Positions 1 through 4,372 of a DNA stretch of 4,372 nucleotides are shown here, piece after piece. This DNA comes from a virus (Duplodnaviria; Heunggongvirae; Uroviricota; Caudoviricetes). Location: the IMG/VR virus record IMGVR_UViG_2778261526_000001; one strand, given 5' to 3'. Numbering within the stretch: the stretch's first letter is position 1; every line of letters starts with the position of its first letter. The notes beneath the pieces were generated by a model. It did not search any database, was not told where the DNA came from, and worked only from the letters and a program-made list of their open reading frames with translations. The position numbers and the translations under genes are program-made.

Positions 1-1
1 G

Positions 2-622
2 GCGTCACCGGGCATGGCACGCATCTGCCTTTACGGGGATTTACAACGATTTGGCCGCCGCATCGACCTTCGTGTGACAACGGGGGCCGAAGCCATCCGG
101 GCGCTGGCCACGCAGCTTCCGTCGTTTCGCCAGAAACTGAATGAGGGCTGGTATCAGGTGCGCATTGCCGGGCGTGATGCAGGCGAAAATGAATTATCAG
201 CCCGTCTTAATGAACCGCTGGCAAATGGTGCTGTGATCCATATCGTGCCGCGTCTGGCAGGAGCCAAAAGTGGCGGTGTGTTTCAGGCGGTGCTGGGTGC
301 GGCGCTGATTGCAGTGGCGTGGTGGAACCCTGCAGGCTGGCTGGGAGCTGCGGCTTTATCGGGCATGTATGCTGCGGGGGCCAGTATGATCCTTGGCGGT
401 GTGGCGCAGATGCTGGCACCGAAAGCCAGAACTCCCCGTACACAGACAACGGATAACGGTAAGCAGAACACCTATTTCTCCTCACTGGATAACATGGTTG
501 CCCAGGGCAATGTTCTGCCCGTTCTGTACGGTGAAATGCGCGTGGGGTCGCGGGTGGCTTCTCAGGAGATCAGCACGGCAGACGAAGGGGACGGTGGTCA
601 GGTTGTGGTGATTGGTCGCTGA
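2..622 (+). CDS. I: Tail assembly protein I (lambda gpI family), 5'-partial; stop TGA at 620-622
   Basis: ORF-track frame 14..622 stays open back to the window edge (codons ASPG precede Met14). The translation ...MARICLYGDLQRFGRRIDLRV...KSGGVFQ...APKARTPRTQTTDNGKQNTYFSSLDNMVAQGNVLPVLYGEMRVGSRV...GGQVVVIGR matches my recollection of lambda gpI (223 aa), so the true start lies about 20 codons upstream of the window. It sits 60 nt upstream of J, as in lambda. Confidence 0.9.
   Translation, partial: ASPGMARICLYGDLQRFGRRIDLRVTTGAEAIRALATQLPSFRQKLNEGWYQVRIAGRDAGENELSARLNEPLANGAVIHIVPRLAGAKSGGVFQAVLGAALIAVAWWNPAGWLGAAALSGMYAAGASMILGGVAQMLAPKARTPRTQTTDNGKQNTYFSSLDNMVAQGNVLPVLYGEMRVGSRVASQEISTADEGDGGQVVVIGR
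3..77 (+). CDS. Probable 3' end of the upstream tail assembly gene (lambda gpK-like), 5'-truncated by the window edge
   Basis: Frame +3 is open from the window edge to TGA at 75-77 (24 sense codons, RHRAWHASAFTGIYNDLAAASTFV). In lambda, as I recall it, K overlaps the start of I by about 100 nt in the +1 frame relative to I, which is this frame. The evidence is synteny plus a short open frame only; I do not recognise the peptide itself. Confidence 0.3.
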   Translation, partial: RHRAWHASAFTGIYNDLAAASTFV

Positions 623-682: not shown

Positions 683-3600
683 ATGGGTAAAGGCAGCAGT
701 AAGGGGCATACCCCGCGCGAAGCGAAGGACAACCTGAAGTCCACGCAGTTGCTGAGTGTGATCGATGCCATCAGCGAAGGGCCGGTTGAAGGTCCGGTGG
801 ATGGATTAAAAAGCGTGCTGCTGAACAGTACGCCGGTGCTGGACACTGAGGGGAATACCAACATCGCCGGTGTCACGGTGGTGTTCCGTGCCGGTGAGCA
901 GGAGCAGACACCGCCGGAGGGGTTTGAATCCTCCGGCTCCGAGACGGTGCTGGGTACGGAAGTGAAATATGACACGCCGATCACCCGCACCATTACGTCT
1001 GCAAACATCGACCGTCTGCGCTTTACCTTCGGTGTGCAGGCACTGGTGGAAACCACCTCAAAGGGGGACCGGAATCCGTCGGAAGTTCGCCTGCTGGTTC
1101 AGATACAGCGTAATGGTGGCTGGGTGACGGAAAAAGACATCACCATTAAGGGCAAAACCACCTCGCAGTATCTGGCCTCGGTGGTGGTGGATAACCTGCC
1201 GCCGCGCCCGTTTAATATCCGGATGCGCAGGATGACGCCGGACAGCACCACAGACCAGCTGCAGAACAAAACGCTCTGGTCGTCATACACCGAAATCATC
1301 GATGTGAAACAGTGCTACCCGAACACGGCACTGGTCGGCGTGCAGGTGGACTCGGAGCAGTTCGGCAGCCAGCAGGTGAGCCGTAATTATCATCTTCGCG
1401 GACGCATTCTGCAGGTGCCGTCGAACTATAACCCGCAGACGCGGCAATACAGCGGTATCTGGGACGGAACGTTTAAGCCAGCATACAGCAACAACATGGC
1501 CTGGTGTCTGTGGGATATGCTGACCCACCCGCGCTACGGCATGGGTAAACGTCTTGGTGCGGCAGATGTGGATAAATGGGCGCTGTATGTCATCGGCCAG
1601 TGTTGCGACCAGTCGGTGCCGGACGGTTTTGGCGGCACGGAGCCGCGCATCACCTGTAATGCCTGGCTGACCACACAGCGTAAGGTGTGGGATGTTCTCA
1701 GTGATTTCTGCTCGGCGATGCGCTGTATGCCGGTATGGAACGGGCAGACGCTGACGTTCGTGCAGGACCGACCATCAGATAAGGTGTGGACCTATAACCG
1801 CAGTAATGTGGTGATGCCGGATGATGGCGCGCCGTTCCGCTACAGCTTCAGCGCCCTGAAGGACCGCCATAATGCCGTTGAGGTGAACTGGATTGACCCG
1901 AACAACGGCTGGGAGACGGCGACAGAGCTTGTGGAGGATACGCAGGCCATTGCCCGTTACGGTCGTAATGTCACGAAGATGGATGCCTTTGGCTGTACCA
2001 GCCGGGGGCAGGCACACCGCGCCGGGCTGTGGCTGATTAAAACGGAGCTGCTGGAGACGCAGACCGTGGATTTCAGCGTGGGTGCCGAAGGGCTTCGCCA
2101 TGTACCGGGCGATGTTATTGAAATCTGTGATGATGACTATGCCGGTATCAGCACCGGTGGTCGCGTGCTGGCGGTGAACAGCCAGACCCGGACGCTGACG
2201 CTCGACCGTGAAATCACGCTGCCATCCTCCGGTACCACGCTGATAAGCCTGGTTGACGGAAGTGGCAATCCGGTCAGCGTGGAGGTCCAGTCCGTCACCG
2301 ACGGCGTGAAGGTAAAAGTGAGCCGTGTTCCTGACGGCGTTGCCGGATACAGCGTATGGGGGCTGAAGCTGCCGACGCTGCGCCAGCGCCTGTTCCGCTG
2401 CGTGAGTATCCGTGAGAACGATGACGGCACGTATGCCATCACCGCCGTGCAGCATGTACCGGAAAAAGAGGCCATCGTGGATAACGGGGCGCACTTTGAC
2501 GGCGACCAGAGCGGCACGGTGAATGGTGTCACGCCGCCAGCAGTGCAGCATCTGACCGCAGAAGTCACCGCAGACAGCGGGGAATACCAGGTGCTGGCCC
2601 GCTGGGACACGCCGAAGGTGGTGAAGGGCGTGAGCTTCCTGCTTCGCCTGACCGTGGCAGCGGATGACGGCAGTGAGCGGCTGGTCAGCACGGCCCGGAC
2701 GACGGAAACCACATACCGCTTCACGCAACTGGCGCTGGGGAATTACAGGCTGACAGTCCGGGCGGTAAATGCGTGGGGACAGCAGGGCGATCCGGCATCG
2801 GTATCGTTCCGGATTGCCGCACCGGCAGCGCCGTCTCGGATTGAGCTGACGCCGGGCTATTTTCAGATAACCGCCACGCCGCATCTTGCGGTTTATGATC
2901 CGACGGTACAGTTTGAGTTCTGGTTCTCGGAAAAGCGGATTGCGGATATCAGGCAGGTTGAAACCACAGCACGCTATCTTGGTACGGCGTTGTACTGGAT
3001 AGCCGCCAGTATCAATATCAGGCCGGGCCATAATTATTATTTTTACGTTCGCAGTGTGAACACCGTTGGCAAATCGGCATTCGTGGAGGCTGTTGGTCAG
3101 CCGAGTGATGACGCATCCGGCTATCTGGATTTTTTCAAAGGCGAGATAGGGAAAACCCATCTGGCTCAGGAGCTGTGGACGCAGATTGATAACGGTCAGC
3201 TTGCGCCTGACCTGGCTGAAATCAGGACATCCATTACGGATGTCAGCAATGAAATCACACAGACCGTCAATAAGAAACTGGAAGACCAGAGTGCAGCGAT
3301 CCAGCAGATACAGAAGGTTCAGGTTGATACAAATAATAACCTGAACAGCATGTGGGCTGTGAAGCTGCAGCAGATGCAGGACGGACGCCTTTATATTGCG
3401 GGTATCGGTGCCGGTATTGAGAATACGCCAGCAGGAATGCAGAGTCAGGTGCTGCTGGCGGCAGACAGGATTGCGATGATTAATCCTGCGAATGGCAACA
3501 CAAAGCCGATGTTTGTTGGTCAGGGTGATCAGATATTCATGAACGACGTGTTCCTGAAATATCTGACGGCTCCCACCATTACCAGCGGCGGTAATCCTCC

Positions 3601-4162
3601 TGCATTTTCCCTTACACCGGACGGGCGACTGACGGCGAAAAATGCGGATATCAGTGGCAGTGTGAATGCGAACGCCGGGACGCTCAACAATGTCACGATA
3701 AATGAAAACTGTCGGGTTCTGGGAAAACTGTCTGCGAACCAGATTGAAGGCGATCTCGTTAAAACAGTGGGCAAAGCTTTCCCCCGGGACTCCCGTGCAC
3801 CGGAGCGGTGGCCATCAGGGACCATTACCGTCAGGGTTTATGACGATCAGCCGTTTGACCGGCAGATTGTTATTCCCGCGGTGGCGTTTCGTGGCGCTAA
3901 ACATGAGCGGGAGAATAACGATATTTATTCGTCATGCCGCCTGATAGTGAAGAAAAACGGTGCTGAAATTTATAACCGTACCGCGCTGGATAATACGCTG
4001 GTTTACAGTGGCGTTATTGATATGCCTGCCGGTCACGGTCACATGACGCTGGAGTTTTCGGTATCAGCGTGGCTGGTAAATGACTGGTATCCCACAGCCA
4101 GTATCAGTGATTTGCTGGTTGTGGTGATGAAGAAATCCACAGCAGGTATCACGATTAGCTGA
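683..4162 (+). CDS. J: Host specificity protein J / central tail fibre (tail tip) protein, lambda gpJ family; 1159 aa
   Basis: Single 3480-nt ORF with ATG at 683 and TGA at 4160-4162. N-terminus [34 protein letters not shown]... and a long internal stretch match my recollection of lambda J (1132 aa). It contains FN3-like repeats and a C-terminal region ending ...[11 protein letters not shown] that is homologous to but divergent from the lambda receptor-binding end. Position is between I and lom. Confidence 0.97.
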
Positions 4163-4182
4163 ATTTTCATAACCCATATGCG

Positions 4183-4209
4183 GGCGCCATTTCTGGCGCC
4201 TTTTTTATT
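4183..4209 (+). terminator. Rho-independent terminator downstream of J
   Basis: GGCGCC (4183-4188), loop ATTTCT (4189-4194), GGCGCC (4195-4200), followed immediately by TTTTTTATT (4201-4209). This is a GC-rich 6-bp stem with a 6-T run, starting 21 nt after the J stop codon. Confidence 0.7.
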
Positions 4210-4219
4210 GCAGAAAAGC

Positions 4220-4230: not shown

Positions 4231-4372
4231 ATGCGTAAAGTTTGTGCAGTCATTTTGTCCGCAGCCATCTGTCTGGCCGTATCCGGTGCGCCTGTATGGG
4301 CGTCTGAGCAGCAGGCCACACTGAGCGCAGGGTATCTTCATGCCCGTACGAACGCTCCCGGCAGCGATAATC
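4231..4372 (+). CDS. lom: Outer membrane protein Lom (Ail/Lom/PagC family), 3'-partial; runs off the window end
   Basis: Translation MRKVCAVILSAAICLAVSGAPVWASEQQATLSAGYLHARTNAPGSDN... is a typical Sec signal peptide (hydrophobic core, VWA-S cleavage motif) followed by the conserved Lom N-terminus as I remember it from lambda (MRK..AAILSAAICLAVSGAP.WASE..STLSAGYLHA.TNAPGSDN). Position immediately downstream of J is as in lambda. Confidence 0.9.
   Translation, partial: MRKVCAVILSAAICLAVSGAPVWASEQQATLSAGYLHARTNAPGSDN

Follow-up and report, generated by a model that had tools for sequence, protein, structure and literature searches.

Which receptor is read by the tip of a lambda-type tail whose backbone closely resembles that of lambda and whose receptor-binding end does not? 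The RBD (receptor-binding domain) of the tail tip protein J decides which strains are entered by a lambdoid phage or by a lambda-derived DNA-delivery particle. The stretch of DNA analysed here (hereafter the window, 4,372 nucleotides) carries a complete J gene, and a preliminary description had singled out the C-terminal region of its product as divergent and as probably altered in receptor specificity. The explanation that we favour, with a probability of roughly 0.82 for the whole of it, is that positions 3767-4159 encode the Ig-like RBD of an intact lambda-type J protein from an Escherichia coli lambdoid prophage, that this RBD is of the published 'gpJ 1A2' class, and that it would be directed to the porin OmpC. 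For an allele with 94% identity, published work has already established the receptor class, and the window adds one more natural allele.

Locus and gene content

A lambda-type tail gene cluster runs along the plus strand, and the window covers its distal end, with a gpI-like gene, J and the beginning of a lom-like gene in succession (Table 1). The hairpin that separates J from lom occupies 4182-4201, the T-run coming after it, and terminators are annotated at the equivalent position in phages 434 and mEp460. The entire window is 99.9% identical to a prophage of E. coli CE0026a (bovine, New Zealand), in which the J locus bears the RefSeq annotation 'gpJ: phage attachment tail tip protein J' and the downstream gene at the position of lom is annotated as an Ail/Lom family member. 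The upstream genes of that prophage include terminase, portal, HK97-type capsid, tape-measure, L and K genes, and potB adjoins. RefSeq places the start of the gpI-like gene 25 nt before the window begins. An antisense ORF of 461 aa inside J (1775-3160) was rejected as a gene, as nothing supported it.

Table 1. Features of the window, with the evidence for each (aa, residues of J; L1 to L4, predicted loops at the bottom of the RBD)
Feature	Positions	Strand	Evidence
gpI-like tail assembly protein gene, directly upstream of J	14..622	+	Pfam Lambda_tail_I, E 4e-23
J gene, tail tip attachment/host specificity protein, complete	683..4162	+	single ORF, 1159 aa plus stop codon
J aa 1-835, hub and two FNIII/Ig domains, lambda-type backbone	683..3187	+	96% identity to lambda J; Pfam
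J aa 836-870, segment aligned to the lambda alpha-helical shaft	3188..3292	+	28 gap positions in lambda
J aa 871-1000, central straight fibre (beta-prism), conserved stretch at its end	3293..3682	+	Phage_Tail_Tip, E 9e-31; 67% identity to lambda
J aa 1001-1159, exchangeable receptor-binding cassette (last fibre layers and RBD)	3683..4159	+	alignments across J backbones
J aa 1029-1159, Ig-like beta-sandwich RBD, putatively OmpC-type '1A2' class	3767..4159	+	Pfam PF12421; AF2; Foldseek
Predicted bottom loop L1, aa 1032-1045	3776..3817	+	non-strand segment 8-21 of the model
Predicted bottom hairpin L2, aa 1073-1081, KHERENNDI	3899..3925	+	hairpin tip at model residues 53-54
Predicted bottom turn L3, aa 1102-1104, LDN	3986..3994	+	non-strand segment 78-80 of the model
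Predicted bottom loop L4, aa 1132-1143	4076..4111	+	non-strand segment 108-119 of the model
Terminator-like hairpin and T-run between J and lom	4182..4211	+	stem 8 bp (6 G-C pairs), loop 4 nt, then TTTTTATT
lom-like (Ail/Lom) outer-membrane protein gene, 5' part	4231..4372	+	Pfam Ail_Lom, E 2.4e-20, first 47 codons; runs off the window

Domain architecture of J

J matches the lambda J chains in the PDB over aa 1-835 (E=0; 8iyk_J/9e7m) and again over aa 866-1158. Its Pfam domains come in the lambda order, namely FNIII-A_GpJ (aa 86-207), Phage-tail_3 (aa 330-498), Ig_J (aa 610-714), Ig_J_second (aa 716-818), Phage_Tail_Tip (aa 872-1000) and Ig_GpJ_C (aa 1029-1159). Hub, FNIII/Ig domains, shaft and beta-prism fibre are all found in the arrangement expected of a lambda-type J, in a gene that lies between gpI and lom.

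Pairwise identity to lambda J is very uneven along the protein. It is 96% over aa 1-835, 11% over aa 836-870, 67% over aa 871-1000, 52% over aa 1001-1031 and 44% (56/128) over aa 1032-1159; by tblastn, the final 128 aa are 43.8% identical. The value for aa 836-870 is low because lambda lacks 28 of these residues, which also explains why J has 1159 aa and lambda J 1132. By its position this segment can be regarded as the counterpart of the alpha-helical shaft, a term that we take from the description of lambda J (PMC11101478). The long form of the segment is also present in vB_EcoS-640R1, where it is 100% identical.

At the extreme C-terminus of J, the RBD matches the Pfam family PF12421 (Ig_GpJ_C, 'C-terminal receptor binding domain') along the full profile (positions 1-135 of 135), with an E-value of 1.2e-38 and a score of 132.6 bits for a cut-off of 26.2. 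The divergent region of the preliminary description lies within this domain. The peptide quoted there is the exact translation of 3779-4159, the stop codon being 4160-4162; only the start coordinate needs correction, as 3780 falls one base inside a phenylalanine codon that begins at 3779. The statement that most positions differ from lambda holds by a narrow majority (56%), and the features said to be shared with lambda are indeed conserved in the RBD alignment (PSGT.TV.V.DD.PFDRQIV, (I/V)DMPAG and KK...GI).

An RBD of the 1A2 class

Alignment of the last 140 residues of characterised and uncharacterised J proteins resolves clear RBD classes: that of lambda, that of 434 and mEp460, that of A8, phi330 and CP-1639, which has a near relative in Stx1a phages, and the class to which the window belongs. 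Members of the latter are vB_EcoS-640R1 (96% identical to the window in the RBD), 2G7b and many Stx2a phages (94.5%), PPompW and VT1-Sakai (93.8%) and PhiR5_1 (93.5%). Isolated phages with a listed host in this class are PhiR5_1, on E. coli C, and 2G7b. That the class is very common and already functionally characterised had escaped the preliminary description.

The RBDs of the window and of VT1-Sakai are identical at 120 of 128 positions, with no indels and with all loop lengths equal. From the window to VT1-Sakai/1A2, the eight differences are R1070S, R1076K, N1078H, N1079T, K1090R, V1107I, D1134N and S1152A. Brödel et al. 2024 (Nature, PMC11338833) give the DNA sequence of 'GpJ 1A2' in their Supplementary Information. 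As read by machine from a PDF with dropped characters and assembled from three reading frames, so that about 10 residues are uncertain, the legible translation of this sequence has the VT1-Sakai residue at all eight of these positions. Judged by this near-identity and by the equal loop lengths, the window RBD belongs to the published 1A2 class.

The other classes fit less well. The RBD of lambda, which is specific for LamB, is 43.8% identical and has dissimilar loops. The RBDs of the A8/phi330 class are 61% identical; the window has a long L1 (DSRAPERW) and a short L2 (ERENND), and on these grounds A8/phi330 is a sister class of which the window is not a member. As for the 434-type OmpC-binding RBDs, identity is 37.7-39.5% and the loop lengths are different.

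Predicted fold and receptor-side loops

Database homologues of J are mostly short fragments, often frameshifted or chimeric, and they were pruned before structure prediction. With the alignment of the remaining homologues, an AlphaFold2 (AF2) monomer model was computed for aa 1025-1159. The model (pLDDT 87.1, pTM 0.82) is a nine-stranded beta-sandwich. In Foldseek searches it aligned with A8 gpJ with and without OmpC (9wcb and 9wca; TM 0.89-0.90, 58% identity) and with lambda gpJ with and without LamB (8xck and 8xcj; TM 0.91-0.93, 43% identity), at an rmsd of 1.9-2.2 Å to these four structures; no other structure came near the A8 and lambda RBD matches. As modelled, the RBD is an Ig-like beta-sandwich that can be superposed on the solved J RBDs.

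We deduced the receptor-facing loops from the strand order of the AF2 model and from the contacts predicted for phi330, rather than from a complex of the window protein, because the text of Ge & Wang (PMC11101478) gives no residue ranges for L1-L4. The OmpC-contacting elements of phi330 are themselves an AlphaFold3 prediction (PMC12502783). Loop L1, which would face the receptor, matches that of lambda in length, exceeds that of the A8/phi330 class by 6 aa and corresponds to T918-Y921 of phi330. Hairpin L2 aligns with the hairpin E953-S962 of phi330, which is predicted to enter the OmpC barrel, and is 5 residues shorter. The turn L3 may also lie on the receptor side, as judged by strand parity only. 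Loop L4 aligns with A1015-P1020 of phi330, predicted to contact the rim of OmpC. In the model, the conserved motifs DQPFD, NG and MPAG sit at the fibre-attached end, opposite the predicted receptor loops.

OmpC as the probable receptor

A8 and 1A2 are lambda gpJ chimeras built to redirect lambda from LamB to OmpC (PMC11338833). In MG1655 ΔlamB ΔompC carrying a plasmid with OmpC G17 (the EDL933 allele), 1A2 yielded 98.3% GFP-positive cells, and in the same host with OmpC G1 (the MG1655/K-12 allele) it yielded 2%. At the highest MOI, delivery by 1A2 was at least 76% with 20 of 23 OmpC variants, the failures being G1, G2 and G40. On wild-type, LamB-positive MG1655, 1A2 reached 5% and wild-type lambda 98% (all PMC11338833). 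The same chimera was reused in the anti-STEC vector EB003 (bioRxiv 10.1101/2025.02.28.640725). For 1A2, delivery is thus shown to be OmpC-dependent, LamB-independent and selective for OmpC alleles, and it is from these data that the class of the window is taken to have the same three properties.

The sister class uses OmpC as well. PDB entry 9wcb is entitled 'Open state of A8 gpJ 713 central tail fiber with OmpC G17 from E. coli EDL933', and phi330, whose RBD is essentially that of A8, does not plate on Keio ΔompC unless ompC is restored (PMC12502783).

By its sequence, the window allele would be expected to behave as the 94%-identical 1A2, and its receptor is very probably OmpC. The host tells a compatible story. 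The OmpC of CE0026a, a lysogen whose prophage encodes a 100%-identical RBD, was compared with solved OmpC chains. Eight substitutions, but no indels, separate it from EDL933 G17; in two extracellular loops it departs from K-12 OmpC, where it is without the 4-residue insertion FTSG and carries TIAG as four additional residues. The OmpC of the lysogen is therefore of the type accepted by 1A2, which adds a little to the OmpC reading, most natural variants (20 of 23) being permissive anyway. The suggestion of the preliminary description that the receptor is altered, for example to another porin, gains support from the OmpC use of the 93.8%-identical 1A2 allele. It had also named identity above 90% to a LamB-using J as the result that would speak for an unchanged receptor; the RBD is 43.8% identical to that of lambda.

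Some observations weigh against OmpC. Between one and four substitutions can be enough, in related J proteins, for a receptor to be added or changed: a single mutation in its receptor-binding protein gives phi21 the use of OmpC, and point mutations give lambda that of OmpF (PMC11101478). Four of the eight differences from 1A2 (R1076K, N1078H, N1079T and D1134N) are in loops predicted to face the receptor, and in length the predicted L1 and L2 agree with lambda and not with the A8 class. Phi21 was dropped as an OmpC-using comparator, as its native receptor is LamB and OmpC is used only by mutation. A literature search for receptor data on vB_EcoS-640R1, 2G7b and PhiR5_1, which did not extend to Brenes & Laub 2025, the likely source of the PhiR phages, found none. 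A 2026 preprint on receptor prediction covers GpJ of Drexlerviridae and explicitly excludes the lambda RBD, and is uninformative here.

Variation, modularity and frequency

The window and VT1-Sakai alleles differ at 28 nucleotides, 8 of which change an amino acid. The resulting dN/dS of 0.13 indicates purifying selection on the RBD, which in sequence terms looks like a real and functional domain rather than noise. Eighty IMG/VR loci of this class comprise 28 distinct RBD alleles, each of 128 aa. Hairpin L2 is the most variable stretch, since every position from 1076 to 1081 varies among the 28 alleles. Further variable sites are 1134, in L4, and 1070, 1090, 1107, 1109, 1118, 1152 and 1157; residue 1134 is D, N or G in the class, with D in the window and N in 1A2. 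Beside L3, residue 1101 is A or T. Three of the eight differences from 1A2 (R1076K, N1078H and N1079T) are in L2. At the level of sequence, the RBD is conserved overall, with four of its eight amino-acid changes in putative contact loops.

A cassette that begins at about aa 1001 is found on three J backbones: that of the window and 640R1, the lambda-like short-shaft backbone of 2G7b, and that of PhiR5_1, which is 73% identical. Residues 1001-1031 are 100% identical in 640R1, 2G7b and PhiR5_1, and the RBDs are 93-96% identical. The switch point directly follows the conserved stretch that ends the beta-prism fibre, and the same stretch, at lambda aa 964, served as the junction of the chimeras of Brödel et al. 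(PMC11338833). Fragments of J in the databases include intermediate alleles that combine other L2 and L4 loops with the same scaffold.

In a megablast search with the 383-bp region, 3485 of 5426 complete E. coli genomes had matches; the copy number per genome had a median of 2 and a maximum of 9, and almost all matches were 90-95% identical. The RBD class of the window ranks with the most frequent J tips of E. coli, and related proteins also carry the labels E. albertii and Shigella dysenteriae. The window allele itself is rare, with at least 99% DNA identity in 5 records vs 2964 records at 90-95%.

Comparison with named systems

The closest known relatives are 1A2 and its natural counterparts, the J proteins of VT1-Sakai, PPompW and Stx2a prophages, which share with the window the class, the loop lengths and the upstream junction. 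They part in the backbone: the window has a natural long-shaft J of 1159 aa, whereas 1A2 was grafted onto lambda J. The A8/phi330/CP-1639 RBDs have the same fold, 61% identity, an identical C-terminal strand and tail and a similar L4 (NDWYP in the window, NNWTP in A8/phi330). They differ in a short L1 (TSTY/TNSY), 6 residues shorter than in the window, and in an L2 hairpin (ENFNSNNQQS) that is 5 residues longer. A8 accepts K-12 OmpC whereas 1A2 does not (PMC11338833), and the differences in L1 and L2 length probably underlie the different ranges of OmpC alleles of these two chimeras.

Lambda J (8xcj, 8xck) has the same architecture, RBD fold and L1 and L2 lengths as the window protein, and the scaffold motifs DD.PFDRQI, NG and DMPAG are common to both. 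Unlike 1A2, it uses LamB; its RBD is 44% identical to that of the window, and its shaft lacks 28 residues. According to Ge & Wang 2024 (PMC11101478), the loops of OmpC clash with the open lambda RBD. The 434/mEp460 RBDs share OmpC use and the scaffold motifs with the class of the window, and OmpC use was transferred when lambda J was replaced by the 434 gene (PMC11101478). They are nevertheless only ~38-39% identical to the window, with longer L1 and L2, a shorter L4 and the tail TKKAASGISIR. As for Gifsy-1 J of Salmonella, likened here to the window by its description, it is lambda-like, and its C-terminal region binds OmpC irreversibly and triggers ejection. It differs in that it binds OmpC, OmpX and BtuB and in that its C-terminal region is reported to be 18% identical to that of lambda (PMC12312913).

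Discussion

How an OmpC-directed J of this class might work can be sketched from its relatives. In the lambda-LamB complex, four bottom loops (L1-L4) of each RBD enter the mouth of the porin, the bottom of the RBD trimer spreads and its top contracts; the change is relayed via the beta-prism and the helical shaft, and the hub opens (PMC11101478). PDB entries 9wca and 9wcb give the closed state of A8 gpJ and its open state with OmpC. By analogy with the lambda and A8 structures, three copies of the window RBD would form a homotrimer at the tip of the central tail fibre, and their bottom loops L1-L4 would insert into the extracellular mouth of trimeric OmpC; that these are the loops that touch OmpC is what we infer from the model. 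Loop variants of OmpC would be selected at this step, EDL933-like and most natural E. coli alleles being accepted and that of K-12 rejected, and LamB would not be needed. As in the lambda-LamB and A8-OmpC complexes, binding would spread the bottom of the RBD trimer, and the change would travel up the fibre, open the tail-tip hub and trigger DNA ejection.

Three other readings question the receptor or the gene itself. One is that the RBD binds LamB, possibly a different LamB allele, and that its divergence is drift on a LamB-binding scaffold. The lambda-like fold of the model (TM 0.91-0.93), the lambda lengths of L1 and L2 and the ease with which LamB- and OmpC-using J proteins interconvert in evolution experiments would fit this reading, but the RBD shares only 43.8% identity with that of lambda, and the 94%-identical 1A2 works in a ΔlamB host and fails on LamB-positive MG1655 (5% vs 98% for lambda). 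We consider drift of this kind barely credible, and the distinct LamB allele specificity that the preliminary description had offered as an option is left without support. Hardly less improbable is that the RBD recognises another outer-membrane protein, OmpF or a TonB-dependent one such as FhuA or BtuB, alone or besides OmpC. A TonB-dependent transporter had been proposed earlier, Gifsy-1 J does bind OmpC, OmpX and BtuB (PMC12312913), and the published 1A2 assays leave room for additional co-receptors. However, a plasmid-borne ompC allele alone took 1A2 from 2% to 98% in a K-12 host that has FhuA, BtuB and OmpF, and no sequence link connects the RBD to FhuA- or BtuB-using tips, in a comparison made without phi80, N15 and HK022; positive evidence for such a transporter was not found. 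It is equally improbable that J is a decaying remnant of a defective prophage with no current function. Many J copies in E. coli are broken, that of VT1-Sakai is frameshifted, the databases are full of J fragments, and the lambda-type stf gene adjacent to J is a pseudogene in the near-identical CE0026a genome. Yet the ORF of the window is uninterrupted over 1159 aa, its RBD has a dN/dS of 0.13, the surrounding prophage retains terminase, portal, capsid, tape-measure, L, K and I genes, and the same RBD class is found on the isolated phages PhiR5_1 (on E. coli C) and 2G7b.

A further reading accepts OmpC and concerns the alleles that are recognised. The window allele might use OmpC with a range of variants that differs measurably from that of 1A2 as a result of the substitutions in L2 and L4: it might accept OmpC of the K-12/G1, G2 or G40 type, or it might have lost some variants. 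Half of the eight differences from 1A2 are in the two most variable stretches of the class, which align with the hairpins of phi330 predicted to contact OmpC; A8 and 1A2 already differ in the range of OmpC alleles that they accept; and the window allele is rare (5 records at 99% or more vs 2964 at 90-95%). The substitutions are conservative, however (K/R, N/H, N/T and D/N), and the OmpC of the host is EDL933-like, i.e. of a type already permissive for 1A2. On balance we regard a shifted range as rather unlikely, and it is with the same reserve that we suggest that R1076, N1078, N1079 and D1134, which lie in L2 and L4 and are predicted to face the receptor, might adjust the set of OmpC loop variants that can be used. 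If they do, this allele would join the natural alleles (28 or more) and the loop-swapped intermediates in a ready-made allelic series, which could be used to decipher how the loops of J read porin alleles and to design delivery vectors.

The OmpC-directed 1A2 reading also bears on annotation, as J is usually labelled only 'host specificity protein'. Under this reading, an RBD class that is very common among E. coli prophages can be described as OmpC-directed and sensitive to the OmpC allele. Such a description should help to choose RBDs for engineered vectors and to predict how prophages spread among STEC and commensal strains.

Organisation of the locus and structure of J

The borders of J, the gene for the tail tip attachment protein, are those of a lambdoid tail locus (table below). 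As the RefSeq start of the gpI-like gene lies 25 nt before the window, the ATG at position 14 is probably not its true start. Downstream of J, phages 434 and mEp460 have annotated terminators at the position equivalent to that of the hairpin found here.

Features of the window and of the E. coli CE0026a genome
Feature	Location	Remarks
gpK-like C40 peptidase gene, 3' end	window 1-77	window opens inside the gene; RefSeq annotation of near-identical locus
gpI-like gene	window 14-622	RefSeq start upstream of the window, overlapping K
Terminator-like hairpin and T-run	window 4182-4211	follows the J stop codon and precedes the start of lom; 8-bp stem, 6 G-C pairs
ompC of CE0026a	L093 12130-13233	
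Side-fibre region	L011 16895-20970 (NZ_CP119003.1)	downstream of the window-equivalent stretch

In a pairwise alignment, the stretch aa 836-870 of J (window 3188-3292), which aligns to the alpha-helical shaft of lambda J, contains 28 residues that are absent from the latter, and these account for the length of 1159 aa versus 1132 for lambda. The long shaft form is common to the window J and that of phage vB_EcoS-640R1; the J of phage 2G7b combines the short, lambda-type form with the same receptor-binding domain (RBD) as the window. A 461-aa open reading frame lies antisense to J (1775-3160, minus strand), as do several shorter ones inside the gene. None of them has support from homology or annotation; codon composition most likely accounts for their presence.

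Host OmpC and side-fibre module

The window RBD is of the same class as that of 1A2, an engineered lambda gpJ chimera that depends on OmpC, accepting the EDL933 G17 protein and refusing the K-12 allele. The OmpC of CE0026a, whose prophage is 99.9% identical to the window, differs from EDL933 OmpC G17 (PDB 9wcb chain A) by eight substitutions; compared with K-12 OmpC, it is without the FTSG insertion and has four additional residues (TIAG). Both indels lie in loops and are evident candidates for what allows 1A2 to tell K-12 OmpC from that of EDL933. In the same genome, an IS1A element interrupts glpQ (L092 33377-35230), which has no bearing on the J RBD.

The lambda-type side tail fibre gene of this prophage is a truncated pseudogene. 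On its 3' side lie a fibre gene encoding a 917-aa 'pyocin knob domain-containing S74 family peptidase' and pieces of tail-fibre assembly genes. It seems that the module for the side fibres has been replaced.

J variation among relatives

The J of the Stx1 prophage VT1-Sakai (L010 411-3883, AP000400.1) has a 1A2-type RBD, and a frameshift splits its gene into two ORFs, for which the annotation reads 'truncated protein by a mutation'. Among the database hits, many others of which are frameshifted or chimeric gene calls, five protein fragments (P0017, P0024, P0026, P0077 and P0086) share the RBD scaffold of the window and carry quite different L2 and L4, two of its predicted receptor-facing loops, as exemplified by HGRGDKESY with ASH-GDYYPTA, or by AWRDGGAFPTA. 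Such sequences suggest mosaicism at the level of the loops, as well as additional specificity classes on a shared scaffold.
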